A stretch of 26,000 nucleotides of DNA from a virus. Position numbers and translations under genes: made by a program. This document shows positions 6,039 through 26,000 of the stretch, piece after piece. Below the pieces are notes generated by a model. That model was not told the DNA's origin and ran no database searches. It saw only the letters and a program-made list of their open reading frames with translations. Numbering within the stretch: position 1 is the first letter of the stretch; every line of letters begins with the position of its first letter. The stretch lies in the UHGV virus genome UHGV-0185509; one strand, written 5' to 3'.

Positions 6039-6533
6039 ATGAATATGGCAGCACCAAAGGGCAACCGATTTTGGGAGGCCCGCAGTAGTCATGGGCGAAA
6101 TCCTAAATTCGAATCGCCTGAGGCGCTGTGGGCTGCTTGTTGTGAATACTTCGAGTGGGTAGAAGCTAACCCGCTATGGGAGATGAAGGCGTTCTCGTAT
6201 CAGGGTGAAGTGATACAAGAGCCTATCGCCAAGATGCGAGCGATGACCATTACCGGCCTCACTCTGTTCATTGATGTGACGCTTGAAACATGGCGCACAT
6301 ATCGCCTGCGAGAAGATTTATCTGAAGTCGTTACGCGAGCAGAACAGGTCATCTACGACCAGAAATTCTCTGGCGCAGCCGCTGACCTTCTCAACGCTAA
6401 CATCATCGCCCGTGATTTGGGCCTCAAAGAGCAGTCGCAAGTTGAAGACGTGACACCTGATAAGGGAGATCGCGATAAGCGGCGCTCTCGTATCAAGGAG
6501 CTATTCAACCGTGGAACTGGACGCGATTCTTGA
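6039..6533 (+). CDS. gp3: terminase small subunit (P22 gp3-type)
   Basis: 164 aa (P22 gp3 is about 162 aa); sits immediately upstream of and overlapping the large terminase. Confidence 0.75.
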
Positions 6534-8010
6534 TAACTTGAGCGACGAAGAGCAAATAGAATTGCTCGAGCTACTCGAAGAAGAAGAGAACTACCGGAAC
6601 ACACACCTGCTATATGAATTTACGCCATACAGCAAACAGCGTGAGTTCATCGACGCCGGGCATGACTATCCAGAGCGATGTTTTATGGCTGGTAACCAGC
6701 TTGGTAAGTCATTTACTGGTGCTGCTGAAGTCGCGTTTCACCTTACCGGGCGTTATCCGGGCACAAAAGGCTATCCTGCTGATGGTAAATATGGCGGGGA
6801 GTGGAAAGGTAAGCGTTTCTATGAGCCTGTTGTCTTCTGGATTGGTGGCGAGACAAACGAGACTGTAACCAAAACGACTCAACGCATCCTGTGCGGTCGT
6901 ATCGAAGAGAATGATGAGCCTGGTTACGGTTCCATACCGAAAGAGGACATCATTAGCTGGAAGAAGTCTCCTTTCTTTCCGAACCTTGTTGATCATCTTC
7001 TGGTTAAGCATCACACGGCTGATGGCGTTGAAGATGGCATTTCAATCTGCTACTTCAAACCATACTCGCAAGGCCGTGCTCGCTGGCAGGGTGACACAAT
7101 CCACGGCGTGTGGTTTGACGAAGAACCACCATATAGCATTTATGGCGAAGGTCTTACCCGTACCAACAAATACGGGCAATTCTCAATTCTGACGTTTACC
7201 CCGCTGATGGGGATGTCTGACGTTGTTACCAAGTTCCTGAAGAATCCCAGCAAGTCGCAGAAAGTGGTCAACATGACCATCTATGACGCTGAGCACTACA
7301 CCGACGAGCAGAAAGAGCAAATCATTGCATCCTATCCCGAGCATGAGAGAGAGGCGCGTGCTCGCGGTATTCCTACGATGGGTAGCGGACGAATCTTCCA
7401 GATACCGGAAGAGACGATTAAGTGTCATCCGTTCGAGTGTCCTGATCACTTCTACGTAATTGGCGGGATGGATTTCGGATGGGATCACCCACAGGCGCAG
7501 GTTCAGCTTTGGTGGGATAAGGATGCAGACACAATCTACGTTTCACGCGTGTGGAAGGCGAAAGAAAAAACAGCCGTTCAGGCGTGGGGAGCTGTTAAAT
7601 CATGGGCGCATAAAGTGCCAACAGCATGGCCTCATGACGGAAACCAGCACGAGAAGGGCGGCGGTGAGCAGCTCAAAGGGCAGTATGCCGACGCTGGTTT
7701 TATGATGTTGCAGGAGCATGCGACATGGCCTGATGGCGGTAACGCTGTGGAGCCTGGCATCACTGAATTGCGCGACATGATGCTCGATGGTCGCTTCAAA
7801 GTATTCAACACCTGTGAGCCATTCTTTGAGGAGTTCCGCCTCTATCACCGTGATGAAAACGGGAAGATCGTCAAGCTTAACGACGACGTGCTATCAGCCG
7901 TTCGCTATGCATACATGATGCGCCGCTTCGCCAAAATGATGCGCGACATCAAAAAACCAAAAGAGAAAAAGATACCAGCCCCAATCAGGCCCATCGCACG
8001 GAGAACTTAA
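6511..8010 (+). CDS. gp2: terminase large subunit (P22 gp2-type)
   Basis: 499 aa, the length of P22 gp2; GTG start at 6511 overlaps the small-subunit 3' end; nuclease-like C-terminal region. Confidence 0.9.
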
Positions 8011-10176
8011 ATGGCCGACGAAAACAGACTCAATTCCATTCTGTGTAAGTTTGACGCAGACTGGATGGCGAGCGATGAAGCCAGAACCGAGGCGACAAAT
8101 GACCTGTATTTTAGCCGAGTGTCGCAATGGGATGACTGGCTATCAAACTACACCACCCTGCAGTATCGCGGACAATTCGATGTTGTCCGCCCGGTTGTCA
8201 GGAAGTTGGTCGCAGAGATGCGCCGGAACCCTATCGACGTTCTCTTCCGACCAAAAGACGGTGCTAATCCTGATGCTGCCGATGTGCTGATGGGGATGTA
8301 TCGTACTGATATGCGCCATAACACGGCAAAAATTGCCGTTAACGTTGGCGTTCGTGAGCAGATAGAGTCCGGCGTTGGTGCATGGCGTCTGGTCACGCAG
8401 TACGAAGACAACGATCCAACAAGCAACAATCAGGTAATCCGACGCCTGCCAATCCATGAGGCCTGCTCACACGTCATATGGGACGCAAACAGCAAGCAGA
8501 TGGATAAGAGCGACGCTAAGCACTGCACGGTGATTAACGCTTTGTCACGCAATGGCTGGAAAGAGTTCGCAGAGGATTACGGTATTGATCCTGACACGCT
8601 GCCATCTTTCCAGAATCCGAACGATACATGGCTGTTTCCGTGGGTATCGAATGATGTCGTCTACGTCGCTGAGTATTACGAGGTCGAAGAGAAGAAAGAG
8701 AAGGTCTTCATCTACCGCGACCCGCTGACAGGTGAGCCGGTCAGCTATTACCAGCAGGATATCAAAGACGTCATCGACGACCTGGCTAATCGTGGATTCA
8801 TTAAGGTAGCAGAGCGCAAGGTGAAGCGTCGGCGTGTGTATAAGTCGATCATCACCTGCACGCAGATACTGAAAGACCGCGAGAAGATAGCTGGAGAGCA
8901 TATCCCAATCGTTCCTGTGTACGGCGAATGGTCATTCGCTGGTGACAAGGAGTGCTACGAAGGAGTGGTAAGGCTGACGAAAGACGGTCAACGCCTTCGT
9001 AACATGATCATGTCGTTCAACGCCGATATCGTTGCCCGTTCACCGAAGAAGAAACCGACCTTCTTCCCTGAGCAAATCGAAGGCTACGAATACATGTACG
9101 GTGGAAATGATGACTATCCGTACTATCTGCAGAACAGGACCGATGAAAACGGTAACGACCTGCCGATTGGTCCAATCTCCTACATGGAAAACCCTGAAGT
9201 GCCGCAAGCCAACGCTTACATGCTTGAGGCTGCCACCAACGCAGTGAAAGAGGTGGCTAGTCTTGGCGTGGATGCGCAGGCGGCAAACTCTCAGGTCGCT
9301 TTCGATACCGTCAATCAACTGAACATGCGGGCAGATCTTGAGACATACGTGTTTCAGGATAACCTGGCTACCGCAATGCGACGTGATGGCGAGATTTATG
9401 CCTCAATGGTCAACGATATTTATGACGTTCCTCGTCATGTAACGCTGACACTTGAAGATGGAAGCGAGAAAGACGTTCAACTCTATGCGCAAGTTGTCGA
9501 TTATCAGTCCGGCAATGTGGTCACACTCAACGACATTCGCGGTCGCTATGAGTGCTATACGGACGTTGGGCCATCCTTCCAGAGCATGAAGGAACAGAAT
9601 CGCGCAGAGATTCAGGAGTTGCTAACCAAGGTTCCGCAAGGTACTCCAGAGTTCCAGATGCTGATGCTGCAATACTTCACGTTGCTTGACGGTAAAGGCG
9701 TCGAGATGATGCGAGAGTACGCGAACAAGCAACTGGTGATGATGGGGCTGAAGAAACCAGAAACACCTGAAGAGATGGAGATGGTGCAGCAGGCACAACA
9801 ACAGCCGCAGCAGCCATCAGCAGAGCAAATTCAGGCGCAGGGTATCCTTCTGCAAGGTCAGGCTGAATTGCTCAAGGCAGAGAACCAACAGGCGCAGATT
9901 CAGGTTGAAGCCGCCAAGGTTGAAGCCCAAAACCAACTCAACGCCGCGAAGATTGCAGAAATCTTCAACAATATGGACCTCGACAAGCAGGCAGAACTGC
10001 GTGAGTACCTCAAGCTCGTAGGTCAATTCCAGCAACAGCGCAGCAAAGATGCTCGTGCTAACGCTGAGCTGCTTCTTAAAGATGCAGACCAGACTCATTC
10101 ACAACGCATGGATTTCGCGAATCTTATGCGTCAAGTTCAAATCCCCTCCGGCGGAGTAGCCGAGACACCTCAATAA
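8011..10176 (+). CDS. gp1: portal protein (P22 gp1-type)
   Basis: 721 aa (P22 portal 725 aa); Gln/Ala-rich helical C-terminus ([18 protein letters not shown]...) typical of the P22 portal barrel; ATG immediately follows the terminase stop. Confidence 0.9.
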
Positions 10177-10189
10177 GAGAGAGTTAATC

Positions 10190-11101
10190 ATGGACCAAAC
10201 CACCGACATTCAGGCTTCTGAAGAATTAACCCTGCCCGGCAATCATGCAGCGGCATCTGCTGATGGCTTAGTTGTCGATAATGCCAACGACAACGCAGGT
10301 CAGGAAGAAGGCTTCGAGATTGTCCTGAAAGACGATGAGAAACCGAAACAAGACCCGGCAACTAATGCTGAATTTGCCCGTCGCCGCATCGAACGCAAAC
10401 GCCAGCGTGAGCTTGAGCAGCAGATGGAAGCGGTTAAGCGTGGAGAGTTGCCGGAGCACCTGCGGGTGAACCCTGAGTTACCAAAACAACCAGACCCTAA
10501 CGATTATCTTTCCGAAGACGCACTGGCTAAGTACGACTATGACCAGAGCCGCGCACTGGCTGCCTTCCAGCAGGCAAACAGTGAATGGCAGATCAAGGCT
10601 ATGGACGCACGAAGCCAGGCTGTCGCCGAGCAGGGTCGCAAAACTCAGGAGTTCACCCAGCAATCAGCGCAATACGTCGAGGCAGCCCGTAAGCACTACG
10701 ACGCAGCGGAAAAGCTCAATATCCCTGACTATCAGGAGAAAGAGGACGCATTCATGCAACTGGTGCCGCCAGCAGTCGGCGCCGACATCATGCGCCTCTT
10801 CCCGGAGAAATCCGCTGCACTCATGTATCACCTTGGTGCTAATCCTGAGAAAACACGCCAGTTGCTGGCGATGGACGGGCAATCCGCGCTGATTGAACTC
10901 ACTCGACTGTCAGAACGTTTAACTCTCAAGCCTCGAGCCAAGCCTGTTTCAGAAGCCCCGTTACCTGATGAACCCATTCAGGGACACGCTGTTGCTGCAA
11001 ATATCTCTGCGATTGAAAAGCAGATGGAAGCGGCAGCAAACAAAGGGGATGTAGAGACATACCGCAAGCTCAAGGCGCAACTGAATAAAGGAATTCGATA
11101 A
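10190..11101 (+). CDS. gp8: scaffolding protein (P22 gp8-type)
   Basis: 303 aa, the length of P22 gp8; charged helical composition; located between portal and coat. Confidence 0.8.
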
Positions 11102-12396
11102 TGGCATTAAATGAAGGTCAACTGGTCACGTATGCTCTGGATGAAATCATCGAAACCGTCCAGAACCTGACGCCAATGGCGTCCAAAGTGACAAAATACA
11201 CCCCTCCGGCAGAATCCATGCAGCGTTCAAGCAACACCGTGTGGATGCCTGTTGAGCAGGAAGCGCCAACCCAGACTGGCTGGGATTTAACTGGCAACGC
11301 AACCGGGATTCTGGAACTCTCCGTGAAATGCAACATGGGCGATCCGGATAACGATTTTTTCGAGCTTCGTGCAGATGACCTGCGTGATGAGCGTTCTTAC
11401 CGTCGCCGCATCCAGGCATCCGCCAAAAAACTGGCGAATAACATTGAGTCAGCGATTGCCAAACAGGCAACTGAAATGGGCTCGCTTGTTGTTCACGATA
11501 CCCGCGCAATTGGTCCATCTACTGGCCTGTCTGGCTGGGATTTTGTGTCTGATGCAGAGCGCCTGATGTTCTCCCGTGAGCTAAACCGCGATATGGGCAT
11601 CAGTTACTTCCTGAACCCTGACGATTACCGCAAAGCAGGCCGCAACCTGGTAGATGGTGACATCTTTGGGCGCGTTCCTGAAGAAGCGTATCGCAACGGT
11701 ACTATTCAGCGTCAGATTGCTGGCTTTGATGAAATTCTTCGCTCACCGAAACTTCCGGCAGTTACCAAGTCAACCGCTACTGGTGTAACTGTGTCTGGTG
11801 CGCAGAAGTTTAAGCCGCAGGCATACACCCTTGATACCGATGGTAACAAAGAGAACGTTGACAACCGTGTTGCAACGGTGACCGTATCCTCCACCACCGG
11901 GTTTAAGCGCGGCGACAAAATCAGCTTCACTGGTGTGAAATTCCTGTCTCAGATGGCGAAGAACGTGCTAACTGATGACGCGACTTTCTCAATCACCCGT
12001 GTGATCGATGGTACTCACATCGAAATCACGCCGAAACCGATTGCACTGGATGACGCGTCACTGACAAAAGAAGAGAAGGCTTACGCTAACGTAAACACCT
12101 CTCTTGCTGATACCACTCCGGTAAACGTTCTGAACGTGGCAACAACCACCGCTAACGTGTTTTGGGCTGATGACTCAATCCGTCTGCTGTCTCAGCCGAT
12201 CCCGGTAACCCATGAACTGTTTGCTGGCATGAAAACGTCTTCCTTCAGCATTCCTGGTATTGGTGTTAACGGCATCTTCGCAACGCAGGGTGATATCAAC
12301 ACTCTGTCTGGTAAGTGCCGTATTGCTGTGTGGTATTCAGCATGTGCTGTACGACCAGAGGCAATTGGTGTTGGTCTGCCTAACCAGACTGCGTGA
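11101..12396 (+). CDS. gp5: major coat protein (P22 gp5-type)
   Basis: 430 aa plus initiator Met; aligns along its length with P22 coat as I recall it (MALNEGQ.VT...DEIIET...[21 protein letters not shown]...GVGLP.QTA). Confidence 0.95.
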
Positions 12397-12404
12397 TAAC
12401 CAGA

Positions 12405-12427
12405 GGGAGCTTCGGCTCCCTTTTTTA
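12405..12427 (+). terminator. strong intrinsic terminator immediately after the coat gene
   Basis: Perfect hairpin GGGAGC-ttcg-GCTCCC followed by TTTTTT (12421-12426), 9 nt after the coat stop. Confidence 0.75.
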
Positions 12428-12440
12428 TCTGGAGACAAGC

Positions 12441-12677
12441 ATGACACACATGATCTTTCGTCATGGAGACATGAAGAAATGGAAAGGCGTTGGATACGAC
12501 TTTGAAATCGTGAAAGCCGAAGAGCTTCAGGAATATCTGGATGCTGGCTGGTTTTCACATCCTGATGACCTTTTGAAGGATGTTGCAGAGCCGGAGCCAG
12601 AGCCAGAAGAAAAACAGCGTAAAAAGCCTGGTCGAAAACCTAAGGCGGCAGCAGATGAACCTGACAACGAAGGGTGA
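12441..12677 (+). CDS. small hypothetical protein between coat and gp4
   Basis: 78-aa ORF from ATG 12441 preceded by GGAGA; acidic PEPEPE linker and basic tail; overlaps the gp4 start by 23 nt in another frame; existence uncertain. Confidence 0.35.
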
Positions 12678-13155
12678 TTTAGTTCTTGCGGCATTACGTA
12701 AGCTCGGTGTGGCATCAAATGCCACGTTAACCGATGTCGAACCGCAGTCTATGGAAGACGGCGTCAACGACCTTGAAATGATGATGGCTGAATGGCTTGG
12801 CGGTGATGCGTCACCTGGGATCAACGTTGGCTACATTTTTGCTGATGCAGATGTCGCTCCAGATCCGGGCGATGAGCACGGCTTATCAAATAACGCTATA
12901 AATGCCGTCATTTTCAACCTTGCCTGCCGCATTGCTCCAGATTATGCGCTGGAAGCGTCTGCAAAACTTATAACCACTGCCAGATACGGGAAAGAGCGAC
13001 TCGTCAAACTGTCTGCAATGGACAGAGCAAAAGCCGCTAAATGTAAGTCCGGTTATCCAAACCGTATGCCTGTTGGTAGTGGTAACCAGTTGGCGAAGTG
13101 GAACGGTTGGAATTACTTCCAGCGAAAGGAACCTTGCGATAACGGGAGCGAATAA
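12655..13155 (+). CDS. gp4: head completion / portal-plug protein (P22 gp4-type)
   Basis: Start placed at internal ATG 12655 to give 166 aa, the P22 gp4 length; [27 protein letters not shown]...[13 protein letters not shown] matches P22 gp4 as I recall it. Confidence 0.85.
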
Positions 13156-14573
13156 TGCCGATTCAGCAACTTCCGCTTATGAAAGGTGTCGGCAAAGACT
13201 TTAGAAACGCTGACTATATCGACTATCTGCCAGTGAATATGTTGGCTACACCCAAAGAAATACTCAACAGCAGCGGATATCTTCGCTCATTCCCGGGCAT
13301 TGCCAAACGTTCTGATGTGAATGGTGTATCGCGCGGCGTCGAGTACAACATGGCGCAGAATGCTGTTTATCGCGTATGTGGTGGCAAGCTGTACAAAGGA
13401 GAAAGCGAGGTCGGTGATGTTGCCGGAAGTGGTCGCGTATCAATGGCGCATGGTCGGACATCACAGGCTGTAGGCGTTAATGGTCAACTGGTCGAATACC
13501 GCTATGATGGCACGGTTAAAACCGTCTCAAACTGGCCTACAGACAGCGGATTCACGCAGTATGAGTTAGGTTCGGTCCGTGACATTACGCGCTTACGTGG
13601 GCGTTATGCGTGGTCAAAAGACGGTACTGATTCATGGTTTATCACTGACCTTGAAGACGAATCGCATCCTGACCGCAACAGCGCACAATATCGTGCCGAG
13701 TCGCAGCCTGACGGAATCATCGGAATCGGAACATGGCGAGACTTCATTGTCTGCTTTGGTTCATCGACGATTGAATATTTCTCCCTGACTGGTGCAACCA
13801 CTGTTGGTGCCGCGTTGTATGTCGCACAGCCATCGCTGATGGTGCAAAAAGGCATCGCCGGAACTTACTGCAAAACGCCGTTTGCTGATTCCTATGCGTT
13901 TATCAGCAATCCGGCAACAGGTGCGCCGTCTGTGTATATCATCGGCTCCGGTCAGGTATCACCAATCGCCAGCGCGAGCATTGAGAAAATACTACGCTCC
14001 TACACTGCTGATGAACTGGCTGATGGCGTGATGGAATCGCTGCGGTTTGATGCGCATGAGTTGCTGATTATCCATCTCCCGCGCCATGTTCTTGTTTACG
14101 ACGCATCTTCAAGCGCTAATGGTCCGCAATGGTGTGTGCTGAAAACAGGCCTGTATGACGATGTGTACCGCGCTATCGACTTCATTTACGAAGGCAATCA
14201 GATAACGTGCGGCGATAAGCTGGAATCTGTTACCGGGAAACTGCAATTCGACATCAGCAGCCAGTACGACAAGCAACAGGAACACCTGCTGTTTACTCCG
14301 TTGTTCAAAGCAGATAACGCCAGAGTTTTCGACCTTGAAGTTGAATCTTCAACTGGCGTTGCGCAGTACGCCGACCGCCTTTTTCTCTCTGCAACAACTG
14401 ACGGCATCAATTACGGACGTGAGCAGATGATTGAGCAGAATGAACCGTTCGTTTACGACAAACGCGTTTTGTGGAAGCGTGTCGGGCGAATCAGGAAAAA
14501 TGTCGGCTTCAAACTTCGCGTTATCACGAAGTCACCTGTAACTCTGTCTGGCGTTCAGATAAGGATTGAGTAA
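13155..14573 (+). CDS. gp10: tail hub protein (P22 gp10-type)
   Basis: 472 aa, the P22 gp10 length; conserved position; ATG overlaps gp4 stop (TAATG) with GGGAG upstream. Confidence 0.85.
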
Positions 14574-15274
14574 TGGCGGATTCATCACTGAATAATCCTG
14601 TCGCGGTTCAGGCTACGCGCCTTGATGCTTCAATTTTGCCACGCAATATATTCAGCCAGTCTTACCTGTTGTATGTCATTAATCAGGGGGCTGATGTCGG
14701 CGCAATTGCCGGGAAGGCAAATCAGGCTGGTCAGGGCGCTTACGATGCCCAGGTAAAAAACGATGAACAGGACGTAGAACTGGCTGATCACGACGCAAGA
14801 ATCACCGCAAACACAAAAGCGATAAATCTCCTTGAGGTCAGGTTAACAACCGCCGAAGGGAAGATAGTCGTACTGCGTAGCGATGTTGATTACTTGCTGG
14901 ATGAGGTTATCGATATTCAGGCGCATTTGGTCACAGTAGATGGAAAACTGCATGGCGTAGAAAACGATGTCTCTGGTATTAAGGCTGATTACGTATCGAA
15001 GTCAGCAACGGATGCGCAATCACTGTCGTCCGCCCTCAACGTGACGACATCATATGCAGTTAACGGAACTCAGGTTGTAGGTTCAAGAAAGACAGGATGG
15101 ACTGCTGCAATAGGAACTCCATATAGGGGTTATTTTAATGCTGACTCTGTAATGCCTGTTGGTGCAACATACAGTCAGTCAGAAGTTCAGGCAATAGCAA
15201 ACAACTTGCAGGTAACTCTAAGGCGTCTAAAAGCCCTTGAGGACGATGTGAGATTACATGGGCTGATTGACTGA
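14573..15274 (+). CDS. gp26: tail needle protein (P22 gp26-type)
   Basis: 233 aa, the P22 gp26 length; central heptad-like helical region; ATG overlaps gp10 stop. Confidence 0.8.
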
Positions 15275-15729
15275 TGATTGCATTCAAACCAACGCGAAAC
15301 ATCGACCTGATAGAAGCAGTCGGAAATCACCCTGACATTATCGCCGGGAGCAATAACGGTGATGGGTACGACTACAAACCTGAATGCCGTTACTTTGAAG
15401 TGAATGTGCACGGGCAGTTCGGCGGCATTGTTTACTATCAGGAGATTCAGCCTCTGACATTCGATTGCCACGCCATGTACCTGCCAGAGGTTCGCGGATT
15501 CAGCAAGGAAATCGGGCTGGCTTTCTGGCGATACATTCTGACTAACACCACCGTTCAGTGCGTCACATCGTTCGCTGCGCGCAAATTCCGCCACGGTCAG
15601 ATGTACTGCGCAATGATTGGCCTTAAGCGTGTAGGAACCATCAAGAAATACTTCAAAGGCGTGGATGACGTGACGTTTTACAGCGCCACACGCGAAGAAC
15701 TAATCGACTTCCTGAATCACGGGAGATAG
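15274..15729 (+). CDS. gp14: head/ejection-associated protein (P22 gp14-type by position)
   Basis: 151-aa ORF in the gp14 position between needle and gp7; start overlaps gp26 stop; assignment mainly by synteny. Confidence 0.6.
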   Translation: MIAFKPTRNIDLIEAVGNHPDIIAGSNNGDGYDYKPECRYFEVNVHGQFGGIVYYQEIQPLTFDCHAMYLPEVRGFSKEIGLAFWRYILTNTTVQCVTSFAARKFRHGQMYCAMIGLKRVGTIKKYFKGVDDVTFYSATREELIDFLNHGR

Positions 15730-15731
15730 CC

Positions 15732-16424
15732 ATGTTATATGCATTTAAGCTGGGCAGAAAACTGCGCGGCGAGGAACCTTATTGCCCTGAAAAAGGCGGA
15801 AAAGGTGGCAGTTCTGATAAAAGTGCAAAGTATGCCGCAGAAGCTCAGAAGTATGCCGCAGACCTGCAAAATCAACAGTGGCAGACGATCATGAAAAACC
15901 TTGCTCCGTTCACGCCGCTTGCGGAGCAGTATGTTAACCAGCTTCAGAACCTTTCCAGTTTAGAAGGACAGGGGCAGGCACTTAATCAGTATTACAACTC
16001 TCAGCAGTATAAAGACTTGGCAGGTCAGGCTCGCTACCAGAATCTTGCTGCTGCGGAGGCGACGGGGGGACTTGGTTCGACAGCCACAAGCAATCAACTG
16101 GCTACGATTGCTCCGACTCTCGGTCAGTCGTGGTTATCAAACCAGATGAGCAACTACAACAATCTGGCAAACATTGGCCTTGGTGCGCTGCAAGGTCAGG
16201 CGAACGCCGGGCAGACATACGCCAACAACATGAGCAGCATTGCACAGCAAAGCGCAGCACTTGCCGCTGCTAATGCCAATAAACCATCAAGTCTTCAGAC
16301 TGCAATTAGCGGTGGCACGTCTGGTGCGATTGCCGGTGCAGGTCTTGCCAGCCTTTTGGGAACATCAACACCTTGGGGCGCTGGCATTGGTGCTGGTATC
16401 GGATTGCTTGGCTCGTTGTTTTAA
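15732..16424 (+). CDS. gp7: ejection (internal virion) protein, P22 gp7-type
   Basis: 230 aa (P22 gp7 229 aa); N-terminus MLYAFKLGRKLRGEEPYCPEKGGKGGSS matches P22 gp7 as I recall it; Gly/Ala-rich C-terminus. Confidence 0.85.
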   Translation: MLYAFKLGRKLRGEEPYCPEKGGKGGSSDKSAKYAAEAQKYAADLQNQQWQTIMKNLAPFTPLAEQYVNQLQNLSSLEGQGQALNQYYNSQQYKDLAGQARYQNLAAAEATGGLGSTATSNQLATIAPTLGQSWLSNQMSNYNNLANIGLGALQGQANAGQTYANNMSSIAQQSAALAAANANKPSSLQTAISGGTSGAIAGAGLASLLGTSTPWGAGIGAGIGLLGSLF

Positions 16425-16433
16425 GGGGTAATC

Positions 16434-17822
16434 ATGGCTACTTGGCAAGGAACAAATGGCGGATTGTTGGCTGGTATCGGCGGCGTCAACTCAAACGCTC
16501 CGAGCGTAAATGACATCGGCAATACGCTTCAGCTTATCAGGCAGAACAATGATATTGAGCGTTCAGGCGCTAACAATGTTGGGCTGACTGCTTTGCAAGG
16601 CCTTTCAGGTATTGCGGGGGTGTTTCAGCAGGAGAAGCAGGCTCAGCGGCAGAAAGAATTTCAGCAGGCGTACGCTAATGCTTATGCGTCTGGTGATCGC
16701 GGTGCTTTGCGTCAGTTGGCTACTCAATATCCAGACCAGATTGAATCCGTTCGTAAAGGCATGGGATTCATTGATGAAGACCAGCGTAATTCTATCGGCA
16801 CCTTAGCGGCTGGCGCACGCCTTGCGTCATCGTCTCCAGAAGCAATGCAATCATGGCTGCAAAACAACGCCAAGGAACTGAATCGCGTCGGTGTTGACCC
16901 TAATAACGTTGCTCAGATGTATCAGCAGAATCCTTCAGGATTTGGTGAGTTTGTTGATCACCTTGGAATGGCTGCTCTTGGTCCGATTGATTACTTCAAT
17001 GTTCAGGACAAGATGGCTGGTCGTGAGATTGATCGCGGAAAACTTGCAGAGACAATCCGCAGCAATCAGGCTGGCGAGGCGCTAACAGCACGAGGCCAGA
17101 ACATCACGATGCGCGGTCAGGACTTATCTGCTTCTACTGCGCGACGAGGTCAGGATTTGGCAATGCAGCGAGCGTCAACAAGAGGAATCGCTGGGAATGA
17201 TGAGCGTACAGTTCAGTTATCAGATGGCAGAACTGTAACGGTAGGCGGGAAGCTTCACGGCGCTGGGGCTAATGCGTTCTACGAAGGCATCGACAACGAG
17301 GGGAATATGGTTCGCGTTCCTGCCAGTTCAATCGCAGCGCCTGCAACATCGTCTGCATCAGCACAAAACTATGCCATGAAGAAGGATATCGACGCGATCG
17401 CAAATGCAGACGCTTCTGCTCTCGATTTCATGACAGGAATGACAGGCGGTGCAGGTAATCCAGCAATTGGTGCTGATGTTCGTAGCCGATTAACAGGAAA
17501 AGAGCAGCGCCAGTTATATAACTCAGCACAACGTATTCAGGGCAGAATGCAGAATCAGGGTGTGGCGGCAGCAAGGGACATGGGTGCCAGTGGTATTAAC
17601 ACCGTTGCAGAAGCGAAGATGTATTTTCAGGGGATGCCGCAGGTTGACTATTCAAGCCCGGAGGCTATGCAGCAGTCGATTCGTGAAATTCAGGAATACA
17701 CCAACAATTACAACCAACAATATAACGTTAATGTTGGTAAATCTCAGCGGAAGCAATCTCAACCTGCACAGGTATCACAGCCAGCAGCCAGCAGTAACTT
17801 TTCTTCACTATGGGGTGATTAA
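16434..17822 (+). CDS. gp20: ejection (internal virion) protein, P22 gp20-type
   Basis: 462 aa (P22 gp20 about 471 aa); conserved position; Gln/Ala-rich low-complexity composition typical of ejection proteins. Confidence 0.75.
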
Positions 17823-20125
17823 TGGCTAAAGCATGGAAAGATGTTATCGCCTCTCCACAGTATCAGGCGTTAGCACCAGAACAAAAAGCGCAGGCTCAGG
17901 AGCAATACTTCAATGAAGTCGTGGCCCCGCAAGCCGGAGAAAATGCAGATCAGGCTAAGCAAGCTTTCTATGATGCCTATCCATTGCCTTCAATGCAGAC
18001 AGAACAGCAGGAAGTAGGGCAATCTCCTGATACCATTCAGCAAGACAAATCACTTATGCAGCGTGCAGGAGAATGGCTAACAGGTGGTCAAAGTGCAGGG
18101 CAAATTGCAGAACAGTCTGGTCGTGGTCTGGTAAACATACCATTTGACGTATTGCAGGGTGGCGCAAGTCTGATTAATGCAATCAGTCAGGGGCTTGGGG
18201 GGCCAAAAGTATTGGATGATGTTTATCGTCCAGTAGACAGACCGACAGACCCCTACGCGCAAGCTGGAGAGTCAATAGGCGGTTATCTTGTTCCTGGAGC
18301 AGGTGTAGCTGGAAACATGGTCATTGGTTCTCTCGCTGACGCGGCGAATCAACGGGGTGATTTTGCCGAAAATGCCGCTATTAATGCCGGACTTAACATT
18401 GCTACGCATGGCCTGATAAATGGCGTTACCCGTGGTGTTCGTGGCGCATCAAATATAATTAGTGGCAATAAAACATCTGCACAGAGAGCGACCACTGCGC
18501 TAACAGAAACATCACCATTCTCCGGTGATGCCGCTGCAGCAACAAATCCTGCGGTTCATGCCGCAGAGGCAAGAGTAGCACAAGGTGTACCAATGACGCC
18601 TGCGACGAGGAACCCAGAGGAAGTCGTTCGCACAGTAGCAGCACAAAAAAGGCCAAATCTCGCTTCATCGCTTGATGAACTAGATATCAATCCTCAGGCT
18701 GAAGTTCTGGAGTCTGCTGAAAGGCTTAATGTTGATTCATTACTCCCTTCACACTTTTCCGGGAACGAGCAATACAAGGCAGTTGAGCAAGCAATCAAGT
18801 CCCGTGCGGGTTCTGCTCTACAGGTGCAGGAAAATGAAGCAATCAGGCAGCTAGCACAGGGCGCGGGGGAGATAATTGATCGCGTTTCCGGTGCAAAAGA
18901 TGCTCTTGGTATGAGCGACAAGTTTATTGATACGGTCAATGGAAGAATGTCTGCGCTGATGAAACGAAGCGACCAGCTTTATCGCAATGTTGAAAAGGCG
19001 ATGCCTGCAGGTGCAAAAATTGATGCGCCATCAACAAGGTCAATGCTCAAACAGGTGGCAGAAGATCTTGGCGGGATGAAAAACCTTGACCCTATTGAAA
19101 AGAGAGTCTTTCGGGCAGTTAATCCAGGCAAGAACGGCGCATTAACTTATGCAAATCTCAATAAGCAACGACGACTTGTTGGTGATGCACTTCATAAGAA
19201 TTCTGGACCATATAAAGATGCTGATCGCGCTGCTTTATCGAGGCTTTACGGTTCGCTCGCCGATGATCAAAAGGCGGCGCTGTCAGAGACAAATGCATTA
19301 CGTGATTTTGAAGTTGCTCAGAGGCTTGTTCAGATGCGAAAAAGCATGGAAGAGCAAATGATTAATCTAACTGGCAGAACGCTGAACGGTGATGTTTCTC
19401 GCAAAGCAACTACAGCACTACAGGCAATGTCGAAAGGCGATGCCAAAGGATTTCGTGAATTGATGCAAAACACGCCGTCCAGGAAGCTAAGAACCGAGCT
19501 ACTGGGAACAGGTCTTCGGGATATGCTTTCGAACGGAAAACGTGGCGCTGATTTTAATCCTGCAGGGTTTGCTGACTGGTATCAAAACATGTTAGCAAAC
19601 GGGCAGATGCGCAATCTTGCCCGACATTTACCAAAAGAGACTATGTCAGGTCTGAACGATGTATATAAGGTCGCAAAGGCTATCAAAGACGCAAAATCTT
19701 ACGAGATAACTACAGGAAGACTAAACGAGTTCGTAAAACGGTTTAATCGCGTCACTGCGGCAAATGAATTTGTTGCTAACCATGCCCAACGCATTGGCAC
19801 TGCGGTTGGTTCAACTGTGTCAGGACCGTTTAGTGCAGTAGGTGCTGTTGCTGGGTCAGAAATTGGGGCAAAAGTCGCCAGCAAAATCAGGGCGATGGGC
19901 GGCGCTGAATCAATTGAATCTGCAGAAAAGCTAATTAGCTCACCAGAATTCCAGAAAGCAGCAAGGCTGGCAGTAAAACAAGCACCAGAAAGCATCGTTG
20001 ATACAACTGTAAGACGCTCTTCTGCTTGGCGCTCGTTTTACAACTCACTTCCAGAATCAGATAAGAAAACCATATCAAGGCTAGGCATCATGTACTGGAT
20101 GAACAGTGATGATAACCAGAAGTAA
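17822..20125 (+). CDS. gp16: ejection (internal virion) protein, P22 gp16-type, unusually long
   Basis: 767-aa ORF in the gp16 position (P22 gp16 about 609 aa from memory); start overlaps gp20 stop; assignment by synteny and composition. Confidence 0.7.
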
Positions 20126-20142: not shown

Positions 20143-20403
20143 TTAGTTGCTGTCTTTTTTATATAAATCTCTGAGCGTATCAAAGACAATTTTCTTTACC
20201 ATATCAGATTGTTGTTCTGCCATACGCTCTGCATCGTCAATGTAAACAGATGCAGAGCTTTGTTTAGCCAATGATTCTTCAATCGCTGCAATTATCTCTG
20301 AGTTCAGCGACCTGTTATTCATCTTCGCACGCTGTTTAATTTTCGCGTGAAGCTCATGCGGAAGTCTCAAGTGAAACTGCGCCTCGTCGTATTTGCTGTA
20401 CAT
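20143..20403 (-). CDS. mnt: Mnt-like ribbon-helix-helix repressor (Arc/Mnt family)
   Basis: C-terminal region (NDAERMAEQQSDMVKKIVFDTLRDLYKK) and N-terminal RHH strand (FHLRLPHELHAKIKQRAKMNNRSLNSEI) match P22 Mnt as I recall it; start placed at the ATG giving 86 aa with an AAGGA Shine-Dalgarno; the ORF track extends it to a TTG at 20487. Confidence 0.8.
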   Translation of the reverse strand: MYSKYDEAQFHLRLPHELHAKIKQRAKMNNRSLNSEIIAAIEESLAKQSSASVYIDDAERMAEQQSDMVKKIVFDTLRDLYKKDSN

Positions 20404-20538
20404 CCTTGATGCCTCACCAAATGGGTGGAATGGCATCGTAAAACCTACTGTACAAATCAACAATAGTACCGTTTCGGTATGTAACAAATGCCAACCGTAG
20501 CCATGCTGCGGCGATTCCTTGTATCTGGAGCAAATTAA

Positions 20539-22401
20539 ATGACAGACATTACAGCCAATGTGATCGTATCAATGCCTTCGCAACTCTTCACTATGGCGCG
20601 TTCTTTTAAAGCCGTAGCCAATGGAAAAATTTATATCGGTAAAATTGACACTGACCCGGTAAATCCTGAAAACCAGATTCCGGTTTATGTAGAGAACGAA
20701 GACGGCTCTCACGTTCCTGTTTCGCAACCAATAATCATTAACGCTGCCGGATATCCGGTATATAATGGACAGATTGCCAAGTTCGTAACTGTGCAAGGCC
20801 ATTCCATGGCTGTATATGATGCGTATGGTTCGCAGCAGTTCTATTTTCCGAATGTGCTGAAGTATGACCCTGACCAGTTTAGACAGGTTATAGAGGGGCC
20901 TGACGGGGCTTACGATGTTGGGTACACAACAGCATTTAATAATAATGAGATAACCGTTGGAGATGCGCTCGATAATAAAATTCCTAACATTATTGGTAAC
21001 GTTGATGTGCCACCAACTGGGTTTATTTTCCATCCATTCACAAGATATAGCGGAGACCATGACTTGCGATATATCAACGGTGGAAACCCCAAATCAATTA
21101 AAAGGCTGAAGAAGACGGGTAATGCCACCGTCACGCTCAACCCTATCACCACTGAGGGTTCCAGCCCTAGCAAGTTAACCGTCGATACAGTAGGGTACGT
21201 TAACCCGGCAAACGCCGACCCCGACGGCACTACATTTCCGGCAGGAATAAAAATTGATGGTGTCACATTTGAAGGGGACGATGCCGGCGGGCAAAGCGGT
21301 TTAACAATACTGCAAGGACACAATTTTCAGATTAAAGAATGCGGATTCTCTAAAACAAAGATTGCGATATGGTTACGTGACGTATGGATGTCGTCGGTAA
21401 GAGACTGTAGTTTGTTCGGACAGTACCTACAAGAGGGTGGAACCAGCATGACTATTGAGAATTGTTATGCGACAGTGCACGACAGCACGGTGACTCCTGG
21501 AGCATTCAGAATTTCAAATCTTCAATACTCATCCATGTCTAGCTGCGCTTCTGATGGCACCGTAAATACAGCGTATTACTTCAACGGTAATAACGGGCTT
21601 AAGGTAACGAGTTGCGGTTCGGAAGTACCAACAGCTCTAGACAAAAACTACGGGACAGCCGCGCATTTCGAAGAAAGTAACGAGATGATACTTGATAATT
21701 TCTACACATTACCTGCTTCGGGTAGCAATATTCTGTTCTCTATAAAAAACAACAACGATCTTGTATTCAATAATACTATGGTTTACGGGGATCCGGCAAA
21801 ATGGAGTCGGGATTTCTGGTTACTTGGTTCCGGGAATAAAGTAGTTGTTAATGGGGGGACTTTTGGGAATACAGGGCGTATCCCGTTGGTGGCAACTAAC
21901 GCTGCTGGTAACACGTTTATCTACAACAGTACTGATGGCAATAGCTACATCGCTAAAACGACTGGCGCGGCTATCACTGTAACCCTTGAACCTAAATTCC
22001 TTAGCAAAACTCTGGATCTTACATCCGATGTGGTCTTTGCAAATAGTGGCCCAGTTACTGGTGGAACCAAGGACATTAAGTTCACTAAGAGTGGTAACAT
22101 TGCTACGGTAGAATTTAATATCACCATCCCTGACATATCTGGCAAAGTAGGTCAACTTTTGATAAATGGCTTACCTTATGCTGCGGCACAGTCTGGTAGC
22201 GGTAGTGTATCTATAGCTTTAGGTCTTGCCACAGGGGTTGGTAATATCACTTGTGTAATACTAAGGGATGACAACCAAATTATGTTTTACAAGTCAACTA
22301 CAACTAGTGGTGTGTCTTCAGCTCTAGGTCCATCTGACTTAATTAATGGGAGTAGTTTAAGGGGGAGCATTACTTACTCCTGCGTGTCTGACTGGGATTA
22401 A
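20539..22401 (+). CDS. gp9: tailspike protein: P22 gp9-type N-terminal head-binding domain fused to a different receptor-binding (beta-helix) body
   Basis: 620 aa; first ~110 aa ([11 protein letters not shown]...[38 protein letters not shown]...[16 protein letters not shown]...NVLKYDPDQ) match the P22 tailspike N-terminus, while the remainder has no resemblance to the P22 body that I can see. Confidence 0.9.
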
Positions 22402-22437
22402 CCTTCTAAAGGTTAATTTTGAAAGTGCATTTGTATG

Positions 22438-22481
22438 CCCCCCCTCATGAAAATTATCTAATTCCCGAGAGGGGGGGGGGG
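22438..22481. repeat. C7...G11 inverted repeat (likely bidirectional terminator) between convergent tailspike and gtrC
   Basis: CCCCCCCTC at 22438-22446 pairs with GAGGGGGGG at 22469-22477, loop about 22 nt; the G run continues to 22481 (11 G), 1 nt from the gtrC stop. Confidence 0.6.
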
Positions 22482-22482
22482 C

Positions 22483-24006
22483 TTATTTGCAACTAATCTT
22501 TCTAAAATCAATGACAAAATACTTGTCATTCACAAATGTATTATACATTTGTCCTTTTGAAACCATTTTCATTTCGCATGGGTTAATCGTATAATTGGCA
22601 TTCTCTATGGGATTCTGTATACCAAACATTTTTATCATACCTTTTCCCCACCATCCATTATTATAGTAAAGAGGAACAACTGAAGAGAGGGAGGGAAATC
22701 TTCTTATAGCATTATCTCTTTGCGGAGATGAAGGTTGCACTCCAAAAAACATGATGGTTTTTGTGGCCTCTGGATCGTTACGTGATATTTCCTCTGCCAT
22801 GATATGCGATAAAAAATAATCAAATTTATTTTGAGCGTCCATAGCACTTCCAAATGCGTATGAGTAGACTAGAAGCGGTAATACGAAAGGTGTTGATAAT
22901 ATGATATGATGCTTAAAGTTTTTAATTAAAGAAAAATAAGATATGCCAACTAATAGCATAAATCCGCTAAACGAAGCCATGACTCTATCTGAGAATACTG
23001 GATATTTTAATAAACATAAATGTATTGCAGCAAATGCCATTATTATTAATGGAGATATCAATAACAAAATAATTATAATTAAATTTAAAAATGATCTTCT
23101 GTTATTGTTAAATATTCCAATGGCTGTCTTTATAATAAATATTGAAACTGTAGCCAAGGAAATTAATGAAAGTAATAGCATGCCATTAACATATAGCAAC
23201 ACCATTGATAAAAATGCCAATGCATTATTTATGAAAATATTAATTCCTTCACGATCAATACTTATTAATGTGGAGTGCTCAATGTTATATTCTCCGAATA
23301 CGAAGTGAGCTGAAATGTTGCTATATATAAAGTATCCAACAAGTAATTGCGCAGCTCTACATAAAATATCTATAATTAGGTCTAGTTGTTTTGTGTATTG
23401 CTTATTAGATGCGTTAATTATGAATTCTATTACTGCCAGACACACAAAAAATCCTATAACAGCCTGGTACAAGCAAAGGGATATAACAACGAAAGAAACT
23501 GAGAAAAACCATTTTAATAATTTTGAACTGTACGATAGGAACGGGAGCAGCATAAGTGACAACGCTGCTATCATTGGTACAACATCGAATTTATAAGATA
23601 AATTTTCAAGCAGAAAAGGGTTTGCAATAATTAGAAAGCATATAACGGCTGAAGCTATGCTATTAAAGTGGTTAAGGTTTGAACGAAAATATAAATATGC
23701 GCATATAATAAAAATTATTATCCCGATAAATAATGTAAGCGGAGAAATGTCAATTGTTGACTCTGCATTCAAGTTAACTAAAGACATTAATAGGTCCGCA
23801 AGAGGTCTTCCATTTGAACTCCATCCAAAATAACCATCCTGTGCTCTTCCAAGATCGTCTATGTAGTATCTATTGGCAATTATTATCGGGATGATATAAA
23901 TAAAACAAAGAGATGATAAATATATTAAAAATAATTTACCTTTTGAGTCCATATGATATTTAATAATTTTATGGCCAGTAATTAATTTGCTCATTGTATA
24001 ATCCAT
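22483..24006 (-). CDS. serotype-specific O-antigen glucosyltransferase (GtrC / Gtr-type family), polytopic membrane protein
   Basis: 507 aa, multiple hydrophobic segments, very AT-rich; sits immediately downstream of gtrA-gtrB in the same orientation, the canonical position of the type-specific gene. Confidence 0.8.
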   Translation of the reverse strand: MDYTMSKLITGHKIIKYHMDSKGKLFLIYLSSLCFIYIIPIIIANRYYIDDLGRAQDGYFGWSSNGRPLADLLMSLVNLNAESTIDISPLTLFIGIIIFIICAYLYFRSNLNHFNSIASAVICFLIIANPFLLENLSYKFDVVPMIAALSLMLLPFLSYSSKLLKWFFSVSFVVISLCLYQAVIGFFVCLAVIEFIINASNKQYTKQLDLIIDILCRAAQLLVGYFIYSNISAHFVFGEYNIEHSTLISIDREGINIFINNALAFLSMVLLYVNGMLLLSLISLATVSIFIIKTAIGIFNNNRRSFLNLIIIILLLISPLIIMAFAAIHLCLLKYPVFSDRVMASFSGFMLLVGISYFSLIKNFKHHIILSTPFVLPLLVYSYAFGSAMDAQNKFDYFLSHIMAEEISRNDPEATKTIMFFGVQPSSPQRDNAIRRFPSLSSVVPLYYNNGWWGKGMIKMFGIQNPIENANYTINPCEMKMVSKGQMYNTFVNDKYFVIDFRKISCK

Positions 24007-24023
24007 GTGATTCCGTAGTTTGT

Positions 24024-24935
24024 CTATTTTTTAATGATATATCTTGGTCTTGATTTAGACTCTATATATATTCTACCTATATACTCACCAAGAACCCCTA
24101 TCCCAATCAGTTGTACACCGCCTAAAAAGAGGATTGATACAAGTAAAGATGGGTATCCACGAACAGAATTACCAAAAATTAGAGTGTCAAAAATCATCCA
24201 TGAGCCATATATAAATGCTAGCCCAGCGACTAATAAACCAATATACGTCCACATGCGAAGAGGGAAGGTCGAGAAGCTCGTGATACCCTCAAGTGCTAGG
24301 TTCCACAATTTCCATCCATTGAATTTAGAGTCACCGGCAACACGTTCTGCCCTCGCGTATTCCACAACATCTGTGCGACCGCCAACCCAACTCAGCACAC
24401 CTTTCATAAAAAGGTTGCGCTCTGGCATAAGCTTAATGTTTTCGACAACTTCACGGCTCATTAACCGGAAATCGCCGACATTCTCCTCGATCTTTGGGTT
24501 GCTTATTTTGTTGTGCAATTTATAAAACCACTCTGCCGTTTTGCGTTTCAGTCGTCCGTCAGTTGAGCGATCAGTTCGCTTAGCCAGCACCATATCAGAG
24601 CCTGCCTGCCACTTTTCGATGAGGTGGGGAATAACCTCAATCGGATCTTGCAGGTCAACATCAATTGGAATTACAGCATCTCCGGTTGCATGGTCTAGCC
24701 CTGCAAACAATGCTGGTTCTTTACCAAAGTTTCGTGTAAATGACAGCGGAACAACCAGCGGGTCTGAAACAGCCAGAGCATTAATAATTGACTCCGTAGC
24801 GTCTTTGCTTCCGTCATTTATGAAAACAATTTCCACTTCATATGGCTTCAACTCTTCGAATTCACGTACCGTTTTATAAAAAATTGGTATCGCTTCTTCT
24901 TCATTGAAGACAGGAACTACAAGAGATATCTTCAT
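24024..24935 (-). CDS. gtrB: bactoprenol glucosyltransferase GtrB (GT2 family)
   Basis: 303 aa; N-terminus ([19 protein letters not shown]...INDGSKD) is a GT2 signature with DxD-like region ([10 protein letters not shown]) and two C-terminal TM helices, as in GtrB. Confidence 0.9.
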
Positions 24936-25294
24936 TTCGTATCCCTAAAGACAATGAACTTTGAATAGACGAAACCGCACACCAGACTGATGGCGGAGAA
25001 GGTGATAAGAGTGATAATTGGAGGAAATGAGCACTTATCAGCAGCCCATCCAACAGTAGCACTCAGTGTTCCCATGAACCCGACATATAACATGTAGCGC
25101 ATCGTTGTAGTCGATGCTTTGAATGTGAATCTTGCATTCGCGAAGAAGCTAAAACTCACAGCCACAACGAAACCTGCGAAGTTTGCAAGAGCTTGATTGG
25201 TATGCGCGCCATAGATACATACACCAAAAACCACCCAGTGTATAAGTGTGTTCAGCACACCAATCGAGGTGTACTTTGCAAATAGCTTTAACAT
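24932..25294 (-). CDS. gtrA: GtrA flippase-like small membrane protein
   Basis: 120 aa, four hydrophobic segments, start motif [20 protein letters not shown]; overlaps the gtrB start by 4 nt; first gene of the three-gene gtr operon. Confidence 0.85.
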
Positions 25295-26000
25295 TTATTT
25301 AATCAATGAGTTCTGAAAGGCATGAAGTCTATCATCCAAGTCTCAATCGATCGATGATTTGCTGTGGTTGTTGAGACAAAACTGAGAAACATAAGTCTTT
25401 GCAATGGCTTTCAAGGCTTTGTGCTATTCGATTGTGGTTGAGGCTGATCACTCCACCTTTTCATCAAGCCAGTCTACCCACCACTGCATCATGTCTCTGC
25501 ATTTATCGTAGTTGATGCATCACTATCACCCTGTAATGGCTTATTACTGGTTTGCAGACAGGTAGGCATGAACAGATACCTGCGCATGAAGATGGAACTA
25601 GTCCGGATGCGATATTTTTGGTGATCACGTACATCATCAACGAAGCGCGTTATGGTGAGTTTTATGACTGCCAAGTAATGTGAAAATTGCGATGCGTACC
25701 AAATTGTGTACCAAATTAAAATCATAAACCATGAAACCCTTACTCATGGCTGTTCTCAGGCTGGGTGCGTGTAATCGTGAAACAAAAAGGTAGATTGTTG
25801 CTTACCGTCATTCATCATTAGGTTAAATCCGTTATTTCTGCTGTATGCCAGAGTACCAAATATCACAACGCTAATCAGCTTTAGAGCGACAATTTGGCAG
25901 CGTGTGGAAACAGATAATGTCAGATTAAAATGAGATAAATGTCACATTTTCTTGCACTTTATTCCAGCCAGTTCATCAGGATTTCCGTAAAAAGAACAGC

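Follow-up and report, generated by a model that had tools for sequence, protein, structure and literature searches.

A P22-type tailspike with an uncharacterized, predicted beta-helix receptor-binding module linked to a gtr cassette in an Escherichia coli prophage

The closest described relatives of the system analyzed here are the tailspikes P22 gp9, Sf6 gp14, and HK620 gp9, whose specificities are Salmonella O:4/O:9, Shigella flexneri Y, and O18A1, respectively, and the P22-like prophage BTP1 of Salmonella Typhimurium ST313, in which a P22-type endorhamnosidase spike likewise adjoins gtr. The BTP1 GtrC works without GtrA/B; lysogens require it to retain long O-antigen when the BTP1 spike is present, and it suffices to prevent infection by BTP1, so that the concept of a matched spike and receptor-modifying enzyme has already been shown experimentally (PMC4413052). 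In addition, Pas et al. 2023 present, for the same phage genera (Lederberg- and Gamaleyavirus), a scheme with the same logic, in which an anchor is combined with a transferred receptor-binding domain and the prophage spike predicts the host serogroup; shuffling of such domains across phage genera is described there as a known pattern (PMC10408124). The subject of this study is the tailspike gene and the adjoining gtr cassette of UHGV virus genome UHGV-0185509, within a stretch of 26,000 nucleotides (hereafter the window) that, judged by its sequence, is the right half of an intact-looking P22-like (Lederbergvirus-type) E. coli prophage at the 3' end of sbcB (Table 1). An earlier note on this DNA had proposed that the spike fuses a conserved head-binding domain to a body unrelated to that of P22 and that this body and the gtr cassette form a matched pair. 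The window spike shares with P22 gp9, Sf6 gp14, and HK620 gp9 the head-binding domain, the junction motif, the gene position, and a predicted design of beta-helix plus C-terminal domain, but it has no detectable sequence similarity to them past residue ~115, its structural identity to them is 10 to 20%, and its predicted specificity is probably O10. The mechanism proposed here is the same as that of BTP1, from which the window differs in its full gtrABC set, its GtrII-type (PF14264) GtrC, and its unrelated receptor-binding domain. The novelty lies in an uncharacterized, predicted beta-helix receptor-binding domain beside gtr, within a design that is itself well known, and we consider it probable that the locus combines an O10-type spike module with a matched gtrC cassette.

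The two-part architecture of the spike was borne out by all comparisons. By alignment count, the head-binding domain (PF09008, residues 1 to 113) showed ~96% amino acid identity to Sf6 gp14 and ~76% to P22 gp9, with Foldseek identities of 85 to 90% and 74 to 76%, respectively. A phmmer search against all PDB chains aligned full-length P22 gp9 (2xc1 and 8tvr) and Sf6 gp14 (7sg7/7ukj) only to residue 115 to 124 and gave no significant match downstream, and a profile of 26 family members matched solved structures in the head-binding domain alone, with nothing beyond it. Nucleotide comparison gave 27 phage records, including HK620, CUS-3, Sf6, epsilon34, IME10, and g341c, that matched just the first 215 to 357 nucleotides of the gene (mostly ~340 to 350) at 81.5 to 94% identity, and none of them extended over its remainder. 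Since the matches ceased at residue ~115 (window position ~20880) in both protein and DNA searches, a real junction lies there, within the conserved junction motif; the earlier note had placed the end of the P22 similarity near residue ~110, and the remaining ~500 residues are indeed a different sequence. Moreover, in a tblastn search of residues 116 to 620 against 50,697 phage records, none of the tailspikes of P22, Sf6, HK620, CUS-3, and Det7 was matched.

Two alternative exchange points are indicated by the DNA comparisons, because identity to HK620, Sf6, and CUS-3 stopped at 20879 to 20895, whereas 92% identity to LD39-1 and L009-type prophages ran to 21023 (residue 162) before it was lost. 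The linker motif DP(D/N)..R..L..G.GA..VGY is common to adaptors of the head-binding-domain type and of the PF18668 type, and the CUS-3 record annotates a "boundary sequence" under the junction match. The earlier note had also pointed to the lower GC content of the spike gene. This holds relative to the head genes (44.0% in the swapped part versus 50.1% at 6039 to 20125), but GC is just as low in the conserved head-binding domain (43.6%), so that the drop does not fall at the junction and is not diagnostic of a swap; GC content was accordingly rejected as a swap marker. For comparison, mnt has 40.6% GC, and the strongest compositional outlier is gtrC (30.9%).

The distribution of homologues supports the downstream part being a separately mobile module. 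When 1.84 billion cluster representatives were scanned exhaustively with HMMER, 79 proteins were retrieved at an E value of ≤1e-3, 16 of them at ≤1e-30. A word-indexed search returned the same protein in E. coli (28 members at 99% identity), homologues at 38 to 76% identity, and one more at 26%. The N termini of these homologues belonged to the P22 head-binding type (PF09008), the TSP1/gp66 type (PF18668), or the T7 tail-fiber type (PF03906), and family homology began at residue ~106 to 122 or at ~145. The module is also borne by no fewer than four further phage tail adaptors, namely, PF18668, the T7-fiber N terminus, Gamaleyavirus gp66-like proteins, and T1-like siphovirus proteins; genomic context assigns P0006 to T1-like siphoviruses and P0002, which is 76% identical, to a different siphovirus. 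The best tblastn matches were uncharacterized Gamaleyavirus "tail proteins" (~44% identity): in the G7C-like phages E20 and vB_Eco_F22, the module forms the C-terminal ~500 residues of an 891-amino-acid tail protein, 43.6 to 43.8% identical over 98 to 100% of the module from the junction on, but behind a different N-terminal adaptor and in a lytic 72-kb Schitoviridae virion. No characterized close relative of the C-terminal region, and hence no already characterized tailspike at high identity, was found in these searches. The earlier proposal of module exchange at this junction therefore stands: the gene is a mosaic whose exchange point lies where the head-binding domain ends, and the downstream module occurs on other adaptors. 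Exchange may also take other routes: the receptor-binding domains of P0013 and P0014 are 92% identical over their first ~800 nucleotides and then diverge (L009 6540 to 7345 versus L004 [LD39-1]), pointing to recombination within the beta-helix as well as at the adaptor junction.

An AlphaFold2 model of the spike (a monomer built on a 26-sequence alignment) had a mean pLDDT of 81, mostly >90 from residue ~210 to the end, and was all-beta, with short regular solenoid strands to about residue 485 and a beta domain at the C terminus. Structure comparison gave high scores to the tailspike gp42 of Acinetobacter phage AS12 (PDB 6eu4; 29.0), the Belisarius gp86 depolymerase (28.4), phi29 gp12 (26.9), CBA120 TSP2 (26.1), Det7/Dettilon gp208 (25.0), and the HK620 spike (22.9), with right-handed parallel beta-helix polygalacturonases, lyases, and epimerases also ranking high. 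Foldseek concurred on a beta-helix (probability 1.0). Among predicted viral structures, the best matches were uncharacterized proteins from Hafnia phage yong1 and from the E. coli siphovirus vB_EcoS-2004III. AS12 gp42 shares 15% identity with the window spike but has a capsule substrate and a different adaptor, a likeness of fold and not family membership. The receptor-binding domain is thus predicted, from a confident model, to be a right-handed parallel beta-helix, in agreement with the fold that the earlier note had expected.

Two acidic residues are invariant in the family alignment, D339 (21553 to 21555, motif CASDG) and E362 (21622 to 21624, motif CGxE), and their spacing of 23 residues corresponds to about one beta-helix turn. 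Tailspike hydrolases with this fold, such as those of P22, Sf6, and HK620, typically have invariant acidic residues separated by one turn of the helix, and by analogy with these spikes D339 and E362 are proposed as candidate catalytic carboxylates. This assignment is purely positional, and no model of a glycosidase or glycoside hydrolase family in Pfam, PHROGs, or NCBIfam matched the spike, the PHROGs match being phrog_21710 alone, a family of unknown function, and NCBIfam having no model for either the spike or GtrC. Together with the epimerases, lyases, and adhesins among the beta-helix neighbors, these points are compatible with a module that leaves the O-antigen chain intact and just binds it or modifies it otherwise, such as by deacetylation. 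We regard such a module as improbable, considering that Pfam detected no esterase (SGNH) domain in the spike, that the spacing of the invariant acidic residues is that of the hydrolases, and that, to our knowledge, all characterized spikes with a P22-type head-binding domain are depolymerases.

The cassette downstream of the spike proved to be a genuine gtr cluster, with all three Pfam families (PF14264, PF00535, and PF04138) above their cutoffs and with genes that overlap or abut on the minus strand. GtrC is 27.6% identical to P22 GtrC; GtrB, called yfdH in RefSeq relatives, and GtrA are 97% and 100% identical, respectively, to the LD39-1 proteins. The adjacency from which the earlier note had suggested a matched pair is by itself uninformative, because it reproduces the ancestral P22 gene order (mnt-arc-ant-9-terminator-gtrC-gtrB-gtrA-attP-int). 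More telling is the comparison with the LD39-1 prophage, which occupies the same chromosomal position: between 21023 and 24031 no identity remains, a span that comprises exactly the receptor-binding domain and gtrC, and the GtrC of LD39-1 is unrelated to that of the window. The exact 507-amino-acid GtrC was indexed in 132 blocks of the collection, and each of the 10 distinct neighborhoods returned carried the same receptor-binding domain at ≥99.5% amino acid identity (nine full spikes and the insertion sequence [IS]-truncated remnant of strain c1-17, identical over its 317 residues), while the head-binding domain varied (94 to 100%). The block at ~20500 to 25508 was at least 99% identical in nucleotides throughout these neighborhoods, but the backbone upstream of it was variously Mnt with a 767-amino-acid gp16, HNH with a 665-amino-acid gp16, a Bro-type antirepressor, or Ant/Arc, and in one case an IntS-type integrase adjoined gtrA.

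Diverged members of the family have other neighbors: an Oac-like acyltransferase for P0013, a 488-amino-acid GtrC 30% identical to that of the window for P0020, 412/413-amino-acid GtrCs unrelated to that of the window for LD39-1 and LR-21-1, and, for P0015, no conversion gene but an integrase directly after the spike. The receptor-binding domain and gtrC were thus found to be co-inherited and to co-vary between prophages, a linkage that fits a specificity cassette and strengthens the case, though still by inference, for a matched pair; by the precedent of BTP1, GtrC may block infection through its own spike. The co-occurrence could also arise if the domain and gtrC were neighbors only through the P22 order and tight linkage, with GtrC serving serum or immune evasion or defense against other phages and leaving recognition by this spike unchanged. 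The order is identical in P22 as far as attP, and the two genes lie 81 bp apart, so that co-inheritance is expected by descent in near-identical copies and does not prove functional matching; moreover, the strong GC gap between the receptor-binding domain (44%) and gtrC (31%) indicates separate origins, P0015 has no conversion gene at all, and IS-decayed prophages retain gtr, once without any spike remnant, as if selection on the host side acted on gtr alone. Nevertheless, each diverged domain variant has a different modification gene while gtrA and gtrB are conserved, and matching has an experimental precedent in BTP1. We therefore rate neighborhood by linkage as unlikely.

In several decayed prophages, gtrCBA survives immediately after an IS3 or IS1 element, often together with a 3' remnant of the tailspike gene (L001 12001 to 16012 in c1-17, L003 8001 to 10939 in EC23HZZ201, L024 4980 to 8715 in 2018-02-2CC, and L029). 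The rest of the P22-like genome has been lost or replaced in these cases, a lambdoid tail region abutting the remnant in c1-17. Such retention suggests host-side selection for the conversion genes.

To identify the likely receptor, complete genomes with family members were collected by megablast with five DNA variants, and all four strains so detected (six of six complete-genome records), in which the window variant occurs as a remnant only, carried an O10 or O10-like wzy, a gene present in just 27 of 5,426 genomes overall. In strain c1-17, an IS3 is followed by two-thirds of the same spike gene (its 3' part) and by the same gtrCBA at 99.9% identity, and in EC23HZZ201 gtrCBA alone is left behind IS1, without a spike remnant; the rfb clusters of both strains are annotated with O10 wzx/wzy. 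LD39-1, with an intact prophage whose receptor-binding domain is 44% identical to that of the window, is also O10 (wzy 98.6% identical), while LR-21-1 and 2018-02-2CC, which harbor an intact prophage and an IS1-truncated remnant, respectively, both at argW, have a wzy 88.9% identical to that of O10. The genomes of two prophages with unrelated receptor-binding domains (PapM-32-1 and STEC379) were outside the list of 27 genomes with such a wzy. Given the rarity of this wzy, three to four independent coincidences would be very unlikely by chance (~1e-7 or less), and O10 is the likely specificity of the spike on this genomic evidence.

The same association could be a by-product of clonal O:K combinations if the module were directed at the K antigen (capsule) or some other surface glycan. 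This seems very improbable, since the association spans wzy genes that are 11% diverged (O10 and O10-like), strains of different sources, and two integration sites, the linked conversion genes (Gtr and Oac-like) act on the O-antigen, and neither phmmer nor the profile search against the PDB showed the module to be related in sequence to any known capsule lyase or sialidase. As for the receptor itself, the O10 O-unit has a D-Fuc4NAc side branch according to a review. When the O10 Wzy was searched against a large protein database of cluster representatives, the best match was 91% identical and lay on a 33-kb contig. A second wzy group, 88 to 89% identical to O10 and annotated just as "EpsG family protein," was observed in about eight strains and may represent an unrecognized O10-related O-genotype.

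Linking prophage receptor-binding proteins to host serogroups is a method used in PMC10408124. Spike subtypes are assigned there to 14 serogroups, none of which is O10, and the text and the accessible supplements mention neither O10 nor E20 nor F22. No description of an O10 tailspike was found in the literature, nor was the host serogroup of E20 or vB_Eco_F22, the three mentions of vB_Eco_F22 in the accessible portions of the sources not being about its host.

Several observations weigh against an O10-directed, matched cassette, in addition to the lack of a glycosidase match and the arguments from linkage and GC content given above. Because genomes were detected by megablast with five DNA variants, members in other serogroups were possibly missed, and the O10 link of the exact window-type domain rests on one lineage with an IS-truncated remnant (c1-17, with gtr only in EC23HZZ201). 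Furthermore, two domains that are just 44% identical and accompanied by unrelated GtrCs both occur in O10, so that serogroup alone leaves this diversity unexplained.

Taken together, the O10-type specificity cassette that we favor would work as follows. Residues 1 to 113 of the spike would dock on the tail hub, the short conserved junction and neck would act as a recombination hot spot, and residues ~163 to 620 would assemble into trimers as a beta-helix receptor-binding module belonging to a small uncharacterized family. This module would bind the host O-antigen, O10 or O10-like, and most likely cleave it by endoglycosidase action, for which D339 and E362 are the candidate catalytic residues. 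The convergent gtrC, with the generic gtrA and gtrB, would glucosylate the same O-antigen in the lysogen, which would shield the lysogen from its own tailspike and stop superinfection, and the tailspike and gtr cluster would be inherited and swapped jointly as one cassette.

A tentative extension of this mechanism, possible but speculative, is a conversion arms race on the O10/O10-like backbone, in which radiating domain variants (38 to 55% identical) would each be locked to a different decorating gene, namely, one of three GtrC kinds, an Oac-like acyltransferase, or none. Each spike would then be tuned to one decorated O10 form, with the lysogen re-decorating the receptor and so excluding its own kind, as an E. 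coli counterpart of the conversion systems of Salmonella epsilon15/epsilon34 and Shigella flexneri, and the tailspike-gtr block (~20500 to 25508) would be the unit that moves between backbones and integration sites. If the O10 assignment is true, the spike represents a serogroup-specific tailspike subtype missing from the published map of E. coli receptor-binding proteins and serogroups, which could serve in typing reagents, as a depolymerase tool, and in predicting phage host ranges. Since several domain variants and modification genes share one O-antigen backbone, they offer a clean natural system for the co-evolution of spike and conversion, although the gain is incremental because adaptor-end module exchange and gtr self-exclusion are already established.

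Table 1. Features of the window around the tailspike gene and the gtr cassette
Feature	Coordinates	Strand	Evidence or remarks
Mnt-like repressor gene	20143..20487	-	PF03869, PF11423; 86 or 97 aa in identical contigs
Tailspike gene	20539..22401	+	620 aa; open reading frame list; GGAG ribosome-binding site 10 nt upstream
Head-binding (virion adaptor) domain, residues 1-113	20539..20877	+	PF09008, E 1.5e-66, full model covered
Junction motif (YDPDQFRQ...GxGAxxVGY) and neck, residues ~109-162	20863..21024	+	
Predicted right-handed parallel beta-helix, residues ~163-485	21025..21993	+	
C-terminal all-beta domain, residues ~486-620	21994..22398	+	DSSP strands 487-615, pLDDT 85-96; family-wide conservation
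Spacer between tailspike gene and gtrC (convergent), 81 bp	22402..22482	.	Inverted repeats ATTAACCTT/AAGGTTAAT; C7...G11
gtrC-like serotype-specific glucosyltransferase gene	22483..24006	-	PF14264, E 3.9e-23; 507 aa; 30.9% GC
gtrB (bactoprenol glucosyltransferase, GT2)	24024..24935	-	PF00535
gtrA (flippase-like)	24932..25294	-	PF04138
Host DNA: duplicated sbcB 3' end and spacer toward dacD	25771..26000	.	attR near 25771

The placement of the prophage at the 3' end of sbcB follows from the host-side match, in that most rows sampled from 5,418 E. coli genomes matched the window only from 25771 to 26000, under the sbcB annotation, and dacD is the next gene after sbcB in contigs identical to the window. 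The first ~20 kb of the window is ~95 to 96% identical (over the ~60% that can be aligned) to E. coli P22-like phages such as APC_JM3.2 and IME10, and the gene order, with homologues of the P22 ejection proteins gp7, gp20, and gp16 followed by mnt, the tailspike gene, gtrCBA, and attR, matches that of P22. An identical tailspike protein was found in 14 contigs. The immI region is cut down to the Mnt-like repressor gene, with no arc or ant between gp16 and the tailspike gene, unlike in P22 and several siblings with the same tailspike-gtr block.

The spacer between the tailspike gene and gtrC has a terminator-like site at 22462 to 22479, in the same place as the annotated P22 terminator, and its C7 and G11 runs (22438 to 22480) form an imperfect hairpin. 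Judged by these sequence features, the spacer is probably a bidirectional terminator, and its long homopolymer could be length-variable. In the presumed gtr promoter (25340 to 25450, minus strand, upstream of gtrA), a palindrome, ATCGATCGAT, is accompanied by a second GATC 97 bp away. The phase-variation signature of Salmonella gtr clusters, some of which are under Dam/OxyR control, consists of four GATC sites; with two sites only, the four-site pattern was not seen upstream of gtrA. Across the whole window, GATC is scarce: it occurs 59 times, against an expectation of 108.9 ± 9.5 from shuffling that preserves dinucleotides, and each of the 100 shuffled sequences had more. Finally, the sbcB prophage site lies ~15 to 35 kb from the wzz-gnd-rfb-galF O-antigen cluster; at this distance, the gtr cassette is genetically linked to the O-antigen genes and could be transferred together with them in recombination events that switch the O-antigen.

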